From: a virus
Taxonomy: Duplodnaviria; Heunggongvirae; Uroviricota; Caudoviricetes
IMG/VR virus record: IMGVR_UViG_646206259_000006
Reading direction: 5' to 3' (one strand)
Length of the DNA: 17,564 nucleotides
Of the stretch, positions 2,619 through 16,739 are shown one piece after another. The translations under genes and the position numbers were made by a program. The first letter of the stretch is position 1. Each line of letters opens with the position of its first letter. The notes below the pieces were generated by a model. It worked only from the letters and a program-made list of their open reading frames with translations, did not search any database and was not told where the DNA came from.

Positions 2619-2790
2619 GCCAACAGGAATACCACAACCACAAAAACGCTACAAAGATGCCCACGGAGCACTCGTTACTGTCGAAAGCGTGTCTCACAAC
2701 CGAGTGACGTTTTATCGCGACGGGTATCAATCGCCATGCGTACAACCGCTGGCGCGTTTCATGAAGGAGTTCGCGGAGGTTAACCAATGA
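2611..2790 (+). CDS. Small hypothetical protein (59 aa), possibly DUF4222-like
   Basis: ATG at 2611 preceded by GGAGG (2600-2604) and overlapping the upstream stop. The ORF-track call from 2524 is probably an over-extension. Confidence 0.5.
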   Translation: MSKPTGIPQPQKRYKDAHGALVTVESVSHNRVTFYRDGYQSPCVQPLARFMKEFAEVNQ

Positions 2791-3854
2791 TACCCGTCCA
2801 GAAGAAGACATTTTCACTGGCTGGTATGTCGCCAAAATCCAGCAATATGACAGCAAAGTCAGACATTAATACAGCAGATACAAGCAAAGTTTATCATTTG
2901 CTGGTGGTAGGAGCGGATGCCTTAACTATGTCAGAAATTACGGTCGATGGTGTTAGCGTTGAGAAGGTCAGCGGCTATGCCAGAGAATTTCTGGTCGTAG
3001 ATGGCTTTCTCTGCTCGTGTAGTGACTCCACAAAAACCTTCGTCCACGCGCGTGACGTTAACGAAATGAGCGCGATGTACTGTGCTTCTGGTTCTTCCAA
3101 TAGTGAGTTTTCGGAGTCCATAAAAAAGAGCTTGCCGTTATGCGGCAACACGGTTTATGGTTATAAGGCACCTCATAAAACGGGTGCCGGGATTGGCGTC
3201 CTGAAAATTCTGAAGGCGACATATGACGCGCCGAGCGTCTTTTTTTATGTCGTAGGTCTGACTCACCCATTTTTTGGGCGTTGGTGTATAATCCAGCGCC
3301 TTTGTCAATCAATGGTGGCTCAGGCGGGGGCTTCTTCGGAAGCGCCGGTATCCTTCAGAGCCGGTTACGCCAACCCTGTCTGGGCTACCACCAGCGAAAT
3401 TGGCGTTTCCGGTGGTAGCGTAACCTGCTATCTGAAGGAGGCTGCCACATGCTGGCTACTACCCCTACCCAAAAAACGCAATTTATCTGGATTATCGCCG
3501 CAGTTCGCCGCGATTGCCCGACAATTACCGCCAAAATTCATCATATTGCTGCCGAGTCTGAACGCGATGCTCGCCGTTCTCTGGTGCGCGATCACATCTG
3601 CTTTTTTGCTGGTCGTATCCGCATGGAGGTGGCACATGATTAAAAACTACGATGTGCATATGGATCCCCTCGAACGCACAAGCCAGATCATCACACTGAC
3701 AGAAGTGATTAACGACATTCTGGTGAGCAACTCTCCCTCACGAGACGAAAGACTGAAGGCGTTACTCGCGATATTGGATCTCGCCGTTCGTGACGTTCAT
3801 TTCCTGCTGGAAGGTGGCGAAATGCCAGTAAAAACGGGGGCAACCAATGAATAA
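2787..3854 (+). CDS. Hypothetical protein (355 aa as an uninterrupted ORF); 3' third may be a separate small gene starting at ATG 3636
   Basis: ATGA start/stop overlap with the upstream gene and GGAGG RBS at 2775-2779. No in-frame stop until 3854. The stretch about 3240-3636 is W/C/L-rich like a non-coding frame. ATG 3636 has its own GGAGG RBS. Confidence 0.45.
3449..3643 (+). CDS. Alternative small ORF (64 aa) nested out of frame inside the 2787..3854 ORF
   Basis: Strong RBS GAAGGAGG (3434-3441) 7 nt before the ATG. Protein-like composition. Frame opens after a TAG at 3416-3418. Cannot be real together with an intact long ORF unless genes overlap extensively. Confidence 0.3.
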   Translation: MLATTPTQKTQFIWIIAAVRRDCPTITAKIHHIAAESERDARRSLVRDHICFFAGRIRMEVAHD

Positions 3855-9216: not shown

Positions 9217-9389
9217 TGGCTATTTCAGTAAAGCCAGTATTGATAAGTGAGAAGCAAATGGAAGCGATAAAGAAAATTCAGGAGGAGCAGCGTAAAAAAT
9301 CAGAGGTAGGAGTTGCGCCAACGATCCACGAAATTGCTCGGGGATTAATGGATAAGGCGCTGGCTTACACTTTAACTGGACGTGGGTAA
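9217..9389 (+). CDS. Small hypothetical protein (57 aa), possibly ribbon-helix-helix-like DNA-binding
   Basis: AAGGGGGG RBS 5 nt upstream. Perfect -10 TATAAT at 9176-9181. The ORF-track call from 9087 is likely an over-extension. The RHH guess is from the beta-strand-then-helix pattern only. Confidence 0.45.
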
Positions 9390-9393
9390 ATTT

Positions 9394-10737
9394 ATGGCTA
9401 CGTGGCAACAGGGTATTAATTCTGGTGGTTTTCTGGCTGGCATCGGTGCGCAAAATGAGAATGCGCCAAAGGCAAGCGACATTAACGCAACGCTTGGTCT
9501 GATCCGCGAAAACAATGAACTGGCTCGCTCAGGTGCAAATAACGTTGCTCTGACAGGTCTTCGTGGTCTGGCTGGAGTTGCTGACATTTATAAGCAGCAG
9601 CAACAGCAGGAACGTAAAGCGGCATTCCAGAAAGGTTATGCAGATGCTTATGCGTCCGGTGACAGGGAGCAGATGCGTAATCTTATTACAGCATTCCCAG
9701 AAGAGTTTGAGGAAGTCCGTAAAGGGATGAGTTATGTCGATGATGCTCAAAGGGATGATTATGGCAATCTGGCGCTCAAAGCACAGGTAGCCTCATCGCT
9801 TGGTCAGGGCGCATTTGGCAGGTTCATGATGGATAATGAGCAGGAGATGCGTCGTTTAGGTATCCCTCCAGAAACTATTGCTGAAATGCAGGTTAATGAC
9901 CCGCAGGGCTTCCAGCATTTCGCAGGTAATCTGGCGCTGTTTTCTCTCGGTCATGAGAAGTATTTCGATATCAAAGATCAAATGGAAGGTCGTCGACTTG
10001 AGCAAGGGCGACTGGATGAAAGTATGCGTCAGGCTGACATGGAGAACGCGAGAGGATGGGCAAATATCCAGAACGCTCAACTAGACAGGGCTCAGCGAGC
10101 ACAAATTCACTCAGATGAGATGGGATTGAAGCTAATGGAGCTGGGGCAAAAAGGTAAGCCGTCAGCAGACTTAATTAAGGGATTAAATTCTGACATTACC
10201 AATTTTGGCAAAAATTATAACTCTGTCAGAGCGGCGGCAAACTCTCTGCAAGCCCTTAGCAAGGTAAATACTGGCGCTGCCCAACTTGGGATTATCTTCA
10301 ACTACATGAAATCTCTTGACCCGCAGTCAGTCGTTCGTGAAGGCGAACAGGTTCAGGTAATGCGGTCTGATGGCATATGGGGACAAATCAAAGGATACAT
10401 AGACCAGCTTAATGCTGGAAACGGCCTGTCGCAGGAGGCAAAGGATAACATTGTTAACGCCGCAAAAATCAACGCCAATGCTATGGGGCAGCAGTTTAAC
10501 CAGCAGGTTGACGAGTATCTCGATACATATGGAGAAACTATTCCTCAGGGGCTAAGAAAAAGCCTTGAAAGAAGGAAAGCGAAGCTATTTGACGATGTTT
10601 CCGGGCAGCCTACATCACAGGCTGGCACTGGACAGGCAAAAGCGGCAACCGGAGGAATATCAGAAGGCGCAACGGCAACCAACCCTAAAACTGGTCAGAA
10701 AATCATTTACAGGAACGGAAAATGGCAGCAAATGTAA
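9394..10737 (+). CDS. Hypothetical large protein (447 aa from ATG 9394; alternative GTG start 9382), Q/N/A-rich and predicted largely helical
   Basis: Long ORF with coding-like composition. No catalytic motif seen (no P-loop, HNH or PD-(D/E)xK). Low-complexity poly-Q stretch (QQQQQ). Flavour of phage internal/ejection or scaffold-type proteins; function unknown. Confidence 0.6.
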   Translation: MATWQQGINSGGFLAGIGAQNENAPKASDINATLGLIRENNELARSGANNVALTGLRGLAGVADIYKQQQQQERKAAFQKGYADAYASGDREQMRNLITAFPEEFEEVRKGMSYVDDAQRDDYGNLALKAQVASSLGQGAFGRFMMDNEQEMRRLGIPPETIAEMQVNDPQGFQHFAGNLALFSLGHEKYFDIKDQMEGRRLEQGRLDESMRQADMENARGWANIQNAQLDRAQRAQIHSDEMGLKLMELGQKGKPSADLIKGLNSDITNFGKNYNSVRAAANSLQALSKVNTGAAQLGIIFNYMKSLDPQSVVREGEQVQVMRSDGIWGQIKGYIDQLNAGNGLSQEAKDNIVNAAKINANAMGQQFNQQVDEYLDTYGETIPQGLRKSLERRKAKLFDDVSGQPTSQAGTGQAKAATGGISEGATATNPKTGQKIIYRNGKWQQM

Positions 10738-12839
10738 TCTTACCGGAAGGTTTTGTGCTCGATGAACAACCTGATAACTCACAGTTTCCTGATAGTTCAC
10801 AGCTTCCTGATGGTTTTGTGCTTGATGCCCAACCAGAACAGCAGCAATCACCTTTGGTTTCACCAGAGGAAAATTCCAGACAGGAAAATGTTGTTAATAA
10901 TGCTAACGGTTTCGACCGTTTTATGTATGGCGTTCTCAGTGGATTGATGGATGTTGGTAAAGGTGTTGGCCTGTTTCAGGATATGACACCAGAAGAGCAA
11001 GCCGCAATTCAGTCTCTACAGCAGAAGTTAGCGGCAAAACCATCAACCGCACAAGATGTTGGTGAGTTCGTTGGACAAGCAGCGCCATTTGTTAGTGGTG
11101 GTGGGATTATTTCTCAGGTTCCCAAAGGGGCGGCAAGACTGGCTGCCGCCGTAGGGCTTGGTGCTGGAGAAGGGGCTATTGTAGCCAATGGAACAAATAG
11201 CGATGTTGCTTCCGGCGCTGCTATTGGCGCTGTGGCTGGCCCTGTAGCCGAACTTGCTGGCCCTGCAATTAATAAAATAGCTGGGAAATTAACCAAGAAG
11301 AATGTTTCTTCGATTCCAGATATTGAGGGGATTACTCCTGCCGAAGAGAAAATTCGTAAGTTATCTGCACAAGGCAACCCAAATCTTGCCTCTTCGCTTG
11401 AAGGGCTAGATCTAAAACCTCAGAAAGAAATTGTTGAGGCTGCAAATAGGCTTCATGTTGATTCAGTTCTTCCTTCTCATTTATCAGGAAATGAGCAATA
11501 CCAAGCTGTAGAGCAAGCCCTAAAGTCACGGACAGGATCAGCGTTAAAAGCTCAAGAAGATAAAGCAATAAGCGAATTAGCCTCTAGTGCTGACAAGATA
11601 ATCGATGATGTTGCTGGTGCGCCAGATGCGTTAGCTATGAGCGAAAAATATATTTATCAGATAAATAGTAGAATGGAAGCACTAAAAAACCGTAGTGATC
11701 AGTTATATAAACGTGTTGATTCCGCTCTATCACCAAGAACAAAAGTCGAAGCAAATAACACAAGCACTATGCTGGAAAAAATCGCTGATGATTTAGGAGG
11801 GTGGGATAATCTTGACCCAATAGAAAAGCGAGTTTTTACAGCAATAAACCCCGGCCCAGATAGCATCCTAACGTATGCAAATTTAAACAGGCAAAGGCGT
11901 TTAGTTGGTGATGCCCTAAATAAAAAGCAGGGGCCATACAAAGATGCTGATAAAGAAGCGCTATCAAGACTATATGGAGCTTTAGCTGAAGACCAAAAAT
12001 CTGTCTTATCCAATACTGGATACTTGCGAGATTTCGAAGTCGCACAACGCCTTGTAGCTATGAGAAAAAACTTAGAAAGGCAAATGGTAAATCTTCGCGG
12101 GAAAACACTTAATGGGGATATAGCGTATAAAGTAACGAATTCTCTTCAATCTATGGCAAAAGGTGATGCGAGAGGGTTTCGTGAGATTATGCAAAATACT
12201 CCATCAAGAACATTGCGAAGGGAGCTAGTAGGAACAGCATTAAGAGATATGCTTTCCTCTGGGAAGCGTGGGGCCGACTTTAATCCATCTGGCTTTGCAG
12301 ATTGGTGGCAAAACTTGCAACACAGTGGACAGCTAAAGACTTTGGCTGAACATTTGCCAAAAGAAACAATGAGCGGACTATATGATGTATACAAAGTTGC
12401 CAGAGCAATAAAAAATGCTAAAGCGCATGAAATATCTACTGGTAAGCTGAATGAGTTTGTAAACAGATTTAATCGGGTAACAGCTCCATACGAACTAGCA
12501 GCAAAACACATTCAAAAAATAGGCACGATGGTAGGCGCTCATTTTGGATCGCTTGGAGCCATTGCTGGGGCTGATATTGGAGCAAGATTGGCGAGTAAAG
12601 CTCGATTAGCTGGTGGAGCAGGGGCGGCTGATGCTGCGGATAAATTAATTGCCTCGCCAGCCTTCCAGAGCGCAGTAAAAAATCTACACGGAAAAGCGCC
12701 TGGGCACATTGTTGATTCACGTATCAGGCGCTCCCCTCAATGGAAGAGTTTTTTTAACTCTCTTCCTGAACAGGAAAAACGGACCATCGCCAGACTGGGC
12801 ATCATTACTTGGCTATCTAATGATCCAGATAATGACTAG
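10722..12839 (+). CDS. Hypothetical large protein (705 aa) with N-terminal tandem peptide repeat, Gly/Ala-rich segments and a long helical middle
   Basis: Overlaps the upstream gene by 16 nt, so co-transcribed. N-terminal repeat PEGFVLDEQP / PDGFVLDAQP. GxxxG-rich segment (GLGAGEGAIVANG…AIGAVAGPVAELAGPA) and C-terminal Gly/Ala hydrophobic stretch (GAHFGSLGAIAGADIGARLA). No enzymatic motif recognised. Confidence 0.6.
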   Translation: MAANVILPEGFVLDEQPDNSQFPDSSQLPDGFVLDAQPEQQQSPLVSPEENSRQENVVNNANGFDRFMYGVLSGLMDVGKGVGLFQDMTPEEQAAIQSLQQKLAAKPSTAQDVGEFVGQAAPFVSGGGIISQVPKGAARLAAAVGLGAGEGAIVANGTNSDVASGAAIGAVAGPVAELAGPAINKIAGKLTKKNVSSIPDIEGITPAEEKIRKLSAQGNPNLASSLEGLDLKPQKEIVEAANRLHVDSVLPSHLSGNEQYQAVEQALKSRTGSALKAQEDKAISELASSADKIIDDVAGAPDALAMSEKYIYQINSRMEALKNRSDQLYKRVDSALSPRTKVEANNTSTMLEKIADDLGGWDNLDPIEKRVFTAINPGPDSILTYANLNRQRRLVGDALNKKQGPYKDADKEALSRLYGALAEDQKSVLSNTGYLRDFEVAQRLVAMRKNLERQMVNLRGKTLNGDIAYKVTNSLQSMAKGDARGFREIMQNTPSRTLRRELVGTALRDMLSSGKRGADFNPSGFADWWQNLQHSGQLKTLAEHLPKETMSGLYDVYKVARAIKNAKAHEISTGKLNEFVNRFNRVTAPYELAAKHIQKIGTMVGAHFGSLGAIAGADIGARLASKARLAGGAGAADAADKLIASPAFQSAVKNLHGKAPGHIVDSRIRRSPQWKSFFNSLPEQEKRTIARLGIITWLSNDPDND

Positions 12840-15590: not shown

Positions 15591-15735
15591 TGTTGGTTCA
15601 GAGCTGGGCTGTGTTGGTTCAAAATGAGTTGATGTTGGTTCAACATTTCAGAAAAAACACAATAAAAACAACGATCTTTACAAATTAAACCAACTGAACC
15701 AACTGAACCAACACCTTTTTGCTTATCTATATAAT
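15591..15735. promoter_or_regulatory. Divergent promoter/operator region: three direct TGTTGGTTCA repeats at 21-bp phasing (15591, 15612, 15633), two tandem inverted copies TGAACCAAC (15695-15712), and a perfect -10 TATAAT (15730-15735) for the plus-strand gene
   Basis: Direct reading. The inverted copies sit where the -35 of the PerC-like gene promoter would be. A related half-site TGTTGGTTAG occurs near 14071-14080 upstream of the peptidase gene. Confidence 0.55.
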
Positions 15736-15748
15736 CTGAGAGGCAGAA

Positions 15749-16036
15749 ATGATAAGGGACAGGAAAGCTGAAGAGCTGGAGTCAAAAGGGCTATACCGGA
15801 GAGCTGCCGCACGATGGGCAGAAGTCATGATGCTGGCAGATGGCGATAAAGAACGTGAACATGCAGCAAACAGACGCTCTGAATGTATCCGTAAGGCGGC
15901 ACGCCCACCAGCAACTACAGACAGATTCGGAGATTTAAGACAGGCAGTTAAGCGGACTCATTCGGCTCTTGGTATGGATGAGGAAGCGAGAGGGTACTTC
16001 AGGCGTTATCGCGATAAAGATTGCCAGAGACAGTAA
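15749..16036 (+). CDS. PerC-family transcriptional regulator-like protein (95 aa)
   Basis: N-terminal AEELESKGLYRRAAARWAEVM matches the conserved PerC/Pch N-terminus as remembered. GAGAGG RBS. Confidence 0.55.
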   Translation: MIRDRKAEELESKGLYRRAAARWAEVMMLADGDKEREHAANRRSECIRKAARPPATTDRFGDLRQAVKRTHSALGMDEEARGYFRRYRDKDCQRQ

Positions 16037-16284
16037 TGCTCTCTCTCTGTTTTGGCAAATTCCCCCTCACTTTGAAGGGATCGGAGCTATAAAAATGGTG
16101 TTATCCGGCTTCCTGCATTGTAGGTTTTCGAAAAAATCAATGGGTTAGGTCATCGTGCAAATTTGCACTCTGCCAGCCAACGCAATTTCTCGTTGGCGAA
16201 AATATCAGGTATTTACTGAACGAACGGTCTACCAGTCTATTCAGTTACCAGTTGCACATGGCTGTTTCATGTGAGAACGGAGGT

Positions 16285-16338
16285 TTTTTCGGACATCACT
16301 ATTGGTTACAGCAATTTCACGAGCAATACGCGCGCGCA
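16285..16338. repeat. Fourth copy of the CG-alternating motif family (ATCACT…CAATTTCACGAGCAATACGCGCGCGCAGG), related to 13376-13428
   Basis: Alignment by eye: shared blocks ATCACT, ACAGCAA, CAATTTC and TACGCGCGCG in the same order. Confidence 0.45.
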
Positions 16339-16553
16339 GGACAACAAGCCTGAACATAGTTACACACCTCGATCGTGAGGGATGTAGACAATGGCTTCTG
16401 GCCAAAGCACCCGAAAAAAACCGTGTACATAAGGGTGTACATAATCAAAAACCGCATTAGAAATAAACCAGCTTCAATGCGGCATTGAAGCCAATACTCT
16501 ACAAACAGATCCAAATAACTCGTAACGCCAATTCTTCCTTTTCAGCCTTCACA

Positions 16554-16586
16554 AATGCCGCCCACTCAAACAGAGCGGCATTTTTC
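16554..16586 (+). terminator. Rho-independent terminator (8-bp stem AATGCCGC/GCGGCATT, 13-nt loop, T5 run)
   Basis: Direct reading of 16554-16586. Confidence 0.5.
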
Positions 16587-16675
16587 CTCCCCGCAACATT
16601 CAATTCTGTTTTGCGTGCCTGCTCCAGATTTTGCGATGTTTTTTTGCCCAGCGCAGTGAGAACGTGAGATACTCA

Positions 16676-16696
16676 CAACTGTATATAAACACAGTT
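16676..16696. promoter_or_regulatory. LexA (SOS) box-like palindrome AACTG-N11-CAGTT upstream of dinD
   Basis: AACTGGTATATAAACACAGTT read directly. Canonical LexA boxes are CTG-N10-CAG, and this site is one base longer between the CTG and CAG half-sites. Confidence 0.5.
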
Positions 16697-16739
16697 GTAA
16701 ACTTACTTTCCTTGCAATCGATATCATATGGAGTGGGCA

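Follow-up and report, generated by a model that had tools for sequence, protein, structure and literature searches.

A gene-free stretch between perC and dinD is very probably the right attachment site of a P4-like satellite at the 3' end of yicC in Escherichia coli

The window analysed here, that is, the whole stretch of 17,564 nucleotides, corresponds to positions 3965-21528 of a locus of E. coli N68 (L001; NZ_CM165878.1), and the RefSeq record of this strain differs from it at 1 base in 17,564. The genes of N68 lie in the order rph, yicC, int (frameshifted), an island of ~17 kb, perC, a 0.5-kb gene-free region, dinD and yicG, and in strains without the island the gap between yicC and dinD is 220 bp. 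Genes for an AlpA-type regulator, AntA, Ash, a Toprim/DUF5906 primase, P22-type ejection proteins and ImmA are found in the island (domains: Toprim, Zn-ribbon primase, DUF5906, Phage_ASH and Phage_AlpA), together with a C4 RNA (79.9 bits) and an isrK RNA (67.8 bits) recognized by Rfam.

The 0.5-kb region (16037-16586) had been described from its letters as ORF-free and dense in palindromes, and both descriptions hold. No CDS is annotated by PGAP between perC and dinD in the record that is 1 base off the window, and the only open reading frames in the region are mechanical ones of 52-65 aa, all with TTG starts, for which no match was obtained in Pfam or PHROGs. The five motifs listed in the original prediction were all recovered at their coordinates by direct reading and by script. 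Using a stem of at least 6 and a loop of at most 10 as the criteria, 5 perfect inverted repeats were counted, compared with 1.30 +/- 1.15 in 1000 dinucleotide shuffles (P=0.013), and the summed stem length was 36 versus 8.3 in the shuffles (P=0.004). When 17.5 kb was scanned in 100-nt steps, the densest 524-nt interval started at 16001 and covers the region.

The region is tripartite, with a module linked to perC (16041-16285), the P arm of an attachment site (16286-16518) and native chromosomal DNA from 16519 onward (Table 1). Taken as a whole, the stretch is very probably the attR of a P4-like satellite or genomic island of ~18 kb at the 3' end of yicC.

Table 1. Position, strand and basis of the features in and around the perC-dinD region
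Feature	Position	Strand	Basis
perC-linked non-coding module, separate from the att site	16041-16285		blastn, 7-island alignment
Segment homologous to roi	16090-16149	+	50/60 identical to HK620 roi
First hairpin-spacer-IHF unit: palindrome CCTGCATTGTAGG (16112-16124, one G-T), spacer TTTTCGAAAA (16125-16134), IHF consensus AATCAATGGGTTA (16135-16147)	16112-16147	+	pattern, architecture and covariation
Perfect 14-bp palindrome GTGCAAATTTGCAC	16155-16168		common to module relatives
Second unit: GCCAACG-N8-CGTTGGC (16176-16197) and IHF-like TATCAGGTATTTA (16203-16215)	16176-16215	+	inverted-repeat scan
Outer P-arm spacer	16286-16422		yicC-type islands only, partly also K56
Tandem probable integrase arm-type sites, GTGTACATA x2, 12-bp period	16423-16443	+	repeat distribution
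A-tract and inverted repeats between arm sites and core	16444-16495	-	fold, terminator scan
Decayed att core copy CAGATCCAAATAA, 13 bp	16506-16518	+	comparison with intact core
Native yicC-dinD intergenic DNA	16519-16739	+	match in island-free strains; K-12-type sequence
Native intrinsic terminator of yicC, hairpin and T-run	16553-16585	+	island-free locus
dinD LexA box CTGTATATAAACACAG (CTGT-N8-ACAG)	16679-16694	+	native DNA; also in island-free locus

The island boundary and the attachment site

The boundary was located using a 691-nt query (16037-16727), some part of which was matched by blastn in 4758 of 5426 complete E. coli genomes. Among the listed genomes that lack the island, which are K-12-like and others, the match begins at query position 478-482, equivalent to 16514-16518 of the window, which is under the last codons of yicC, and the right boundary of the island therefore falls within the 16037-16586 region. 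The last island base is 16518, and the first native yicC-dinD base is 16519 (CTCGTAACGCC...); the change from element to native DNA is sharp against the listed island-free genomes, against the K-12-type attB sequence and in the multiple alignment. A right attachment or boundary region was one of the readings offered in the original prediction, and it is the correct one, with the boundary now fixed to the base (16518/16519). The contrary outcome that had been raised, identity of the region with native DNA upstream of dinD, applies from 16519 onward but not to the left of it. The stretch is thus an ordinary mobile-element boundary and not an sRNA gene, because it holds probable integrase-binding repeats, a decayed copy of the target site and the orphaned terminator of yicC.

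The intact core, CAGATTCAGAATATCGAATAA, is 21 bp long and comprises the last 6 codons of yicC and its stop. The left junction, 1.4 kb beyond the window, was taken from the N68 locus, where the yicC stop is followed by GCTATCAG..., a strong terminator AAAGCCCGCGAAATGTCGGGCTTTTTT, GTGTACATAgagGTGTACATAA, ATGTACAT, an inverted GTGTACATA and the start of int. The attL core at this junction is intact, encodes the C-terminus of YicC (...EQIQNIE*) and matches the end of yicC at 21/21 positions. The core is repeated at both ends of the island, but the attR copy is decayed and was shorter than that of attL in every strain examined, with lengths of 13, 12 or 19 bp; its forms are CAGATCCAAATAA in the window, CAGATTCAATAA in O157:H7 and CAGATTCAATAT(T/C)GAGTAA in three others. 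Since the attR cores differ from attL everywhere, the exact crossover point is not readable from the junctions. A crossover at the TAA overlap only, which was considered from the attL/attR differences, was dropped, as a circular form of the element shows the full 21-bp core and the attR copies are mutated.

This circular form, NZ_CP148430.1 from strain Z1323CEC0013, is a circular replicon of 12,152 bp. A 677-bp spacer separates its perC from an intact int, after which comes the gene that opens the window. Positions 1-488 of the perC-int spacer are 98.8% identical to 16030-16517 of the window, positions 476-692 counted from the spacer start are 99.1% identical to the int-proximal junction, and the two arms are contiguous and overlap on CAGATTCAGAATATCGAATAA. 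The core in the circle agrees with the 3' end of yicC at 21/21 positions in N68 and at 20/21 in K-12. NZ_CP148430.1 is the same element in circular form, its perC-int spacer is attP, and 16286-16518 of the window is the P arm. The record was deposited as a complete circular replicon; an assembly product is possible in principle. In the window strain the island is probably locked in place, given that the attR core has lost 8 bp and that the int of a near-identical genome is frameshifted, as annotated for the int next to yicC in N68, just outside the window.

The P arm carries two tandem GTGTACATA(A) repeats (16423-16432 and 16435-16444), and their distribution points to a role at the attachment site. 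The 40.7-kb locus contains the exact 9-mer GTGTACATA 5 times, never farther than ~160 bp from one of the two island junctions, and ~0.3 copies would be expected by chance in that length on both strands. Measured on attP, two copies precede the core, at -83 and -71 relative to its start. The other side, numbered from the end of the core, has copies at +109, +121 and +152 (the last inverted), a degenerate one at +139 and the int ATG at +189; the int-proximal arm has four such GTACA-type sites. The pair is kept in all yicC-type islands and is absent from the perC islands with other integrases (L003, L005, L007 and L009). The diverged yicC island of O157:H7 shows the same layout with drifted motifs: its P side has two copies of GTGTACACA, and its P' side has two of GTGTACCCA together with an inverted one. 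The intact homologue of the integrase has Arm-DNA-bind_3 (E 2.5e-19), Phage_int_M and Phage_integrase domains. We consider GTGTACATA to be probable arm-type sites of this integrase, and the repeats are putatively assigned to Int rather than to an AlpA/Xis-type factor. Of the 5426 E. coli genomes, 273 contain the P arm and 448 the P' arm. The outer P-arm spacer contains a small hairpin, CCTCGATCGTGAGG, at 16367-16380. The IHF consensus WATCAANNNNTTR, strict or relaxed, does not occur from -150 to +210 of the core; A-tracts and inverted repeats occupy the arm-core interval in its place.

Within this interval, the 21-bp palindrome GCTTCAATGC-G-GCATTGAAGC (16471-16491) is located 15-35 bp left of the core, and a longer-range pair is formed by CCGCATT (16449-16455) and AATGCGG (16476-16482). 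The segment gave a terminator-like call on the - strand only, as a hairpin followed by a U-rich tail; in the - strand RNA, CCGCAUU can pair with AAUGCGG, and UUUUUGAUU follows. The - strand fold has a z-score of -1.9 for the window, -1.1 for the circle and 0.0 for O157, and 7 of 200 shuffles fold as well, so that a - strand terminator is a weak reading. Most relatives have the palindrome with one mismatch (GCTACAATGC-G-GCATTGAAGC), and the perfect 21-bp form is therefore particular to the lineage of the window; the O157:H7 lineage has an unrelated inverted repeat and a T5 run at the same position. It is an attractive reading that the palindrome and the terminator beyond the core may act as an inward-facing terminator pair which insulates the island from outside transcription, and it is equally possible that the palindrome is a site for an accessory protein (AlpA/Xis-type).

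The intrinsic terminator beyond the core was correctly recognized in the original prediction, but it is native chromosomal DNA and not part of the island. It folds with -12.4 kcal/mol (z = -5.2), and the same hairpin and T-run stand 38 nt past the yicC stop in the island-free K-12-type locus (L002). It is yicC's own terminator, split from yicC by the island.

The non-coding module next to perC

The left part of the region is independent of the attachment site and portable, and it accompanies perC. The module follows perC in islands at the yicC site, on the paoD side and at other sites, and it was found by blastn in 933 of 5426 E. coli genomes, in 252 of them with at least 80% cover. In the 7-island alignment, similarity to the non-yicC islands (L005 and L009) stops near 16285.

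The module is built of a recurring unit, in which a palindrome with a 5-7-bp stem is followed by a TTYCGRRAA-type spacer of 9-10 nt and by [AT]ATCA[AG]NNNNTTA, the last being the IHF consensus or one mismatch off. The pattern WATCAANNNNTTR occurs only twice in the whole window. The IHF-like 13-mers are all on the same strand in 13 arrays and in the phage gene roi, and the gap between hairpin and 13-mer is 8-10 nt in most units in which a perfect hairpin was detected, the second unit of the window having 5 nt. In PICI-type relatives the hairpin of this second unit is re-registered as AACGCAATTTTGCGTT, with the 13-mer 8-10 nt later. The 14-bp palindrome GTGCAAATTTGCAC is either conserved or altered by a central A>T in perC islands, as it is in PICI-type elements beside a Nu1-like terS, and a paralogue of it, GTTGCAGATCTGCAAC, is present in L011, L015 and L029. 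The number of units ranges from 1 to 4 among otherwise near-identical islands, of which the window is the shortest form.

Pairing in the stems is preserved although their sequences change. Across 18 distinct units, 99.1% of cells are paired and 3 of 6 pairs show compensatory changes, a result reached by 0 of 500 shuffles, and slid registers pair at most 53%. The compensatory changes fall into three stem classes (CCTCAA/TTGAGG, CCCCCA/TGGGGG and CCTGCA/TGCAGG), which implies few independent covariation events. Dyad symmetry in duplex DNA would yield the same counts as a hairpin in RNA or single-stranded DNA. Variant palindromes include CCTCAAATTGAGG, CCCCCAATGGGGG and CCTGCATTGCAGG.

Relatives of the module were found in two other settings. 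First, sub-segments of 16104-16216 are located at the distal ends of PICI-type satellites, directly after a gene of 93-94 aa (phrog_1561) and a Nu1-like small-terminase/Rpp-type gene. In a 15-mer scan, 7 of 120 viral-contig matches were true relatives and the rest were mostly chance, and a perC-based scan of species-representative genomes gave no confirmed relative. With respect to the operon upstream of it (perC here, a terS-like operon in the PICI-type elements), the module is found either way round, which suggests an orientation-independent role, such as 3'-end hairpins or DNA architecture, rather than a strand-specific RNA. Second, 16090-16149 is 83% identical to the interior of roi in 53 phage records (HK620 and 52 others). 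The homology spans codons ~36-56 of HK620 Roi, within its Rha-like DNA-binding domain. HK620 roi has a single IHF consensus, which lies in this homologous part together with the palindrome beside it, CCTCAAATTGAGG; in the island M24FEP, identity with roi is complete over the first 43 nt. A protein-like similarity to Roi is also seen (LPALQVFERINGLG versus LPQIEVSERINNLG). The roi frame is open for ~90-100 codons in some PICI arrays and has stops in the window and most relatives; in the window, a TAG at 16121-16123 breaks it, so that the segment is non-coding. The AntA/AntB protein of the island was considered as a Roi homologue and showed no similarity.

What the module does can be read in several ways. 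It may be a REP/RIB-like 3'-end element, which we regard as possible but tentative. In this case, hairpins at the 3' end of the transcript and DNA bent by bound IHF would close the last transcription unit before the att site. The module itself derives from a site inside the phage gene roi or has it in common.

It may also be inert debris, made of fragments of roi-like genes and gene 3' ends that were left by cassette exchange in a hotspot for accessory genes, and this too we would entertain with caution. The frame-broken roi homology with its stop codon, the varying number of units in near-identical islands and the defence and accessory genes (Abi, Doc toxin) that flank the module in relatives all suit such an origin. 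In addition, the PICI-type arrays contain the repeated 3' end of the neighbouring 93-94-aa gene, the exact unit pattern is absent from all GTDB species representatives, and the protein-like Roi similarity together with a unit period of 54 nt fits decaying gene fragments. However, debris would hardly be expected to keep its palindromes through compensatory changes, nor to hold the IHF-like 13-mer always on one strand and mostly 8-10 nt past the hairpin, and the module is kept in 933 genomes across elements with different integrases.

A further idea, which we judge improbable, is that the hairpin-IHF units are a satellite array copying the internal roi operator (Roi and IHF site) of a helper. 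The satellite could in this way detect Roi/Rha-type proteins of lambdoid or P22-like helpers or titrate them, the palindromes differing according to the helper that they address, and if this were true, infection by a helper would be linked through the array to expression or recombination at the distal end of the satellite. A literature search with the exact motif sequences gave nothing relevant, and a hairpin-IHF module common to PICI ends and phage roi appears to be undescribed.

Operator, RNA and packaging readings

Two functions had been proposed for the region as a whole besides a boundary. One is a multi-operator control region for perC or dinD, in which the palindromes would be repressor or activator sites, and we consider it very unlikely. 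Several perfect dyad symmetries are indeed present, and part of the proposal survives in another form: the GTGTACATA repeats are probable integrase arm sites, and by analogy with P4, those next to int probably autoregulate int too. They are not operators of perC or dinD, however. The region lies downstream of perC, and the LexA box of dinD, a LexA-regulated SOS gene, is in native DNA and has the same context in island-free strains. Furthermore, the unit palindromes vary in sequence yet stay symmetric, which would be unexpected for one sequence-specific regulator.

The other proposal, a small regulatory RNA gene in 16037-16586 that ends at the terminator at 16553-16585, appears highly improbable. 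The region is rich in hairpins, the - strand of 16030-16310 folds better than 200 of 200 shuffles (z = -2.56), and the C4 and isrK RNAs elsewhere in the island show that the element does encode RNAs. Against this, no Rfam family was found at the gathering threshold, and a relaxed cut-off (E<=10) gave only a noise match to mir-932 (E 6.4). The promoter scan returned 0 promoter-like sites where 2.7 were expected, and the + strand fold is unexceptional (z = -1.14). The only + strand terminator is that of yicC, in native DNA past the island junction, and satellites differ in how the left module is oriented with respect to the operon next to it. The known EHEC sRNAs considered, the Pas sRNAs from Stx phages and Esr41 in OI-43, are both unrelated to the region.

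Finally, a packaging site (cos/pac) of the satellite in the left module is scarcely credible: homologous segments do lie 0.3-0.5 kb from Nu1-like small-terminase/Rpp-type genes at PICI-like element ends, but neither a lambda-type cosN (<=2 mismatches) nor a P2/P4-type cos (<=3 mismatches) is present in or near the region, and in L013 an exact cosN stands ~1.3 kb from the common segment, upstream of the Nu1-like gene, where the cos of a PICI is expected (PMC6739421).

Proposed mechanism and relation to known systems

On the attR reading, the satellite would have entered the 3' end of yicC through site-specific recombination. The P arm would present two arm-type sites to the island's tyrosine integrase, followed by the A-tract and inverted repeat, which may be the site of an accessory factor or serve as a - strand terminator that faces inward, and then by the core copy. 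Excision would join the P arm to the int-proximal arm with its four further GTACA-type sites, and Int would bridge arm and core sites to drive recombination, as in lambda and P4. In the lysogen, the terminator in the int-proximal arm would serve yicC.

As an attachment site, the attR is well resolved and of low surprise, and the left module is mildly interesting. What had been a palindrome-dense spacer can now be parsed into an exact island boundary and a 21-bp yicC core, and GTGTACATA is proposed as the arm-site motif of an integrase lineage that ~5-8% of the complete E. coli genomes carry. The truncated attR core and the frameshifted int offer a structural reason for the probable fixation of the window copy. 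With these features, islands that carry perC, among them that of O157:H7 at this site, become easier to annotate, and so does the prediction of which copies are still mobile become easier. The hairpin-IHF module is a modest lead on cross-talk between satellite and helper or on termination of distal transcription units in satellites.

The closest known counterparts of the left module are RIB/RIP elements and the Roi operator. RIB/RIP elements (BIME-1) consist of REP palindromes of ~35 bp that flank an IHF site at the 3' ends of E. coli operons; they were reportedly described by Boccard and Prentki and by Oppenheim, both in 1993. The module is like them in joining an extragenic palindrome to an IHF consensus, in following the last gene of a transcription unit and in its variable copy number. 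It differs from them in sequence, which is unrelated, in palindrome length (13-16 bp against ~35 bp) and in arrangement, since its units are direct tandem repeats instead of inverted pairs and have no Y-L-Z1 order, and it is confined to phage satellites and one phage gene. By eye, the units show no resemblance to the REP consensus. Roi of phage HK022 is said to bind inside its own gene beside an IHF site, in work attributed to Clerget and Boccard from 1996. The part of roi that resembles 16090-16149, with its IHF consensus and CCTCAAATTGAGG, may be this published Roi/IHF site of HK022-type phages. The two differ in that the segment is coding in the phage and non-coding here, with the palindrome changed to CCTGCATTGTAGG and with tandem arrays in relatives.

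The attachment site itself compares well with those of lambda Int and of P4 Int, which acts at the leuX tRNA gene. As in these systems, the core is a copy of the target gene's 3' end, arm-type repeats flank the core (here at a distance of 70-150 bp), and the adjacent int is transcribed away from the site and encodes an N-terminal arm-binding domain. The size is also alike, with ~265 bp here and roughly 240 bp for lambda attP. In contrast to P4, the target is a protein gene, yicC, rather than a tRNA gene; unlike lambda attP, no IHF consensus is found between arm and core; and, unlike both, the attR core copy is decayed in the window strain.

With respect to element type, neither the 19-nt P2/P4 cohesive end (<=3 mismatches) nor, in the PGAP annotation of the near-identical record, the sid, psu or delta genes were found, and the island does carry an immunity RNA, an alpha-type primase, Ash, an AlpA-type regulator and a P4-type integrase. 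The same gene end is used by other elements: the 3' end of yicC is an att site for PICIs, with 'attB drift' among similar integrases (10.1101/2022.07.18.500453), and for MGIs of Vibrio (PMC5704250), and the reported drift fits the variable attR cores seen here. Unlike a classical PICI, the element described here looks P4-like by its gene content, with C4 and isrK RNAs, Ash, a Toprim/DUF5906 primase and P22-type ejection-protein genes.

Satellite cargo and immunity RNAs

The satellite carries genes of a P22-type injectosome (window 9382-12839; locus L135, 4606-9264), namely an Inj_translocase/gp16-like 'DNA ejection protein', an 'injection protein' and DUF2824, and no capsid, tail or terminase genes were found in it. 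Such a cargo is unusual among P4-like elements and may hint at a helper of the P22 kind. The isrK and C4 antisense RNAs (window 3168-3395) are an immunity RNA pair of the P4/P1 type. Because both Rfam matches fall within the ORF annotated as 'ash family protein' (2787-3854), this CDS call, or the 5' part of the CDS, may be wrong.

Coordinates of features in the window and in related loci (L-numbers)
Feature	Location	Strand	Details
isrK	window 3168-3245	+	Rfam match, 67.8 bits
C4 antisense RNA	window 3308-3395	+	Rfam match, 79.9 bits
Iteron-like repeats upstream of perC	window 15592-15642	+	GTTGGTTCA x3, direct, 21-bp period
Iteron-like repeats upstream of perC	window 15686-15712	-	GTTGGTTCA x3, inverted, 9-bp period
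ProQ/FinO-family gene and perC-family genes	L137 28584-30702; L003 1-450
dinD, G749	L004 3516-3778		deleted along with native intergenic region
dinD, 19SZHZ803Rt	L006 2247-2849		cut to 603 nt
dinD, O145:H28 RM12581	L003 3336-4158		frameshifted

Decay of integrated islands and the circular form

In the near-identical E. coli N68 locus, int lies immediately to the left of where the window starts (L001 2710-3968) and is annotated as frameshifted. The attR core at window 16506-16518 is short by 8 bp, and that of the O157:H7 island is likewise short (CAGATTCAATAA), which suggests that fixed islands recurrently lose the attR core. Damage to dinD is frequent where an island adjoins it, as in the three loci listed in the table. 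E. coli Z1323CEC0013 has a 12,152-bp 'plasmid', NZ_CP148430.1 (L136), which in its entirety is an excised or episomal circle of this satellite family; its int and 21-bp attP core are both intact, and the ejection-protein and ImmA genes that the window's island has as cargo are missing from it.

Genes near perC and the roi frame

In yicC-site islands of O157:H7 and O145:H28, a gene for a ProQ/FinO-family protein lies directly upstream of the perC-family genes; no such gene is present in the window's island. Right behind the perC stop codon of the window is a (CT)5 run (16039-16048), longer by one repeat than in all six other aligned perC islands. In some PICI-type arrays (L010 2380-2680, L108 and L015), the roi frame is open for about 90-100 codons and spans 54-nt (18-codon) units, for example ...PPQIEDCGRINGLVLLSRHPPMGVFETINSLGLLPRFPALQVFEIINGLG..., and PGAP annotates no gene at these places. 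This long open frame may be due to chance or may encode an unannotated repeat protein.

Iteron-like repeats

Allowing at most one mismatch, GTTGGTTCA gives 13 matches against 4.2 expected, a number reached by none of 200 shuffles. The circular relative has an inverted copy of this iteron-like region, 87% identical, directly past its primase gene (L136 6533-6619). By analogy with P4, the repeats near perC and the copy by the primase gene suggest an ori/crr-like pair.
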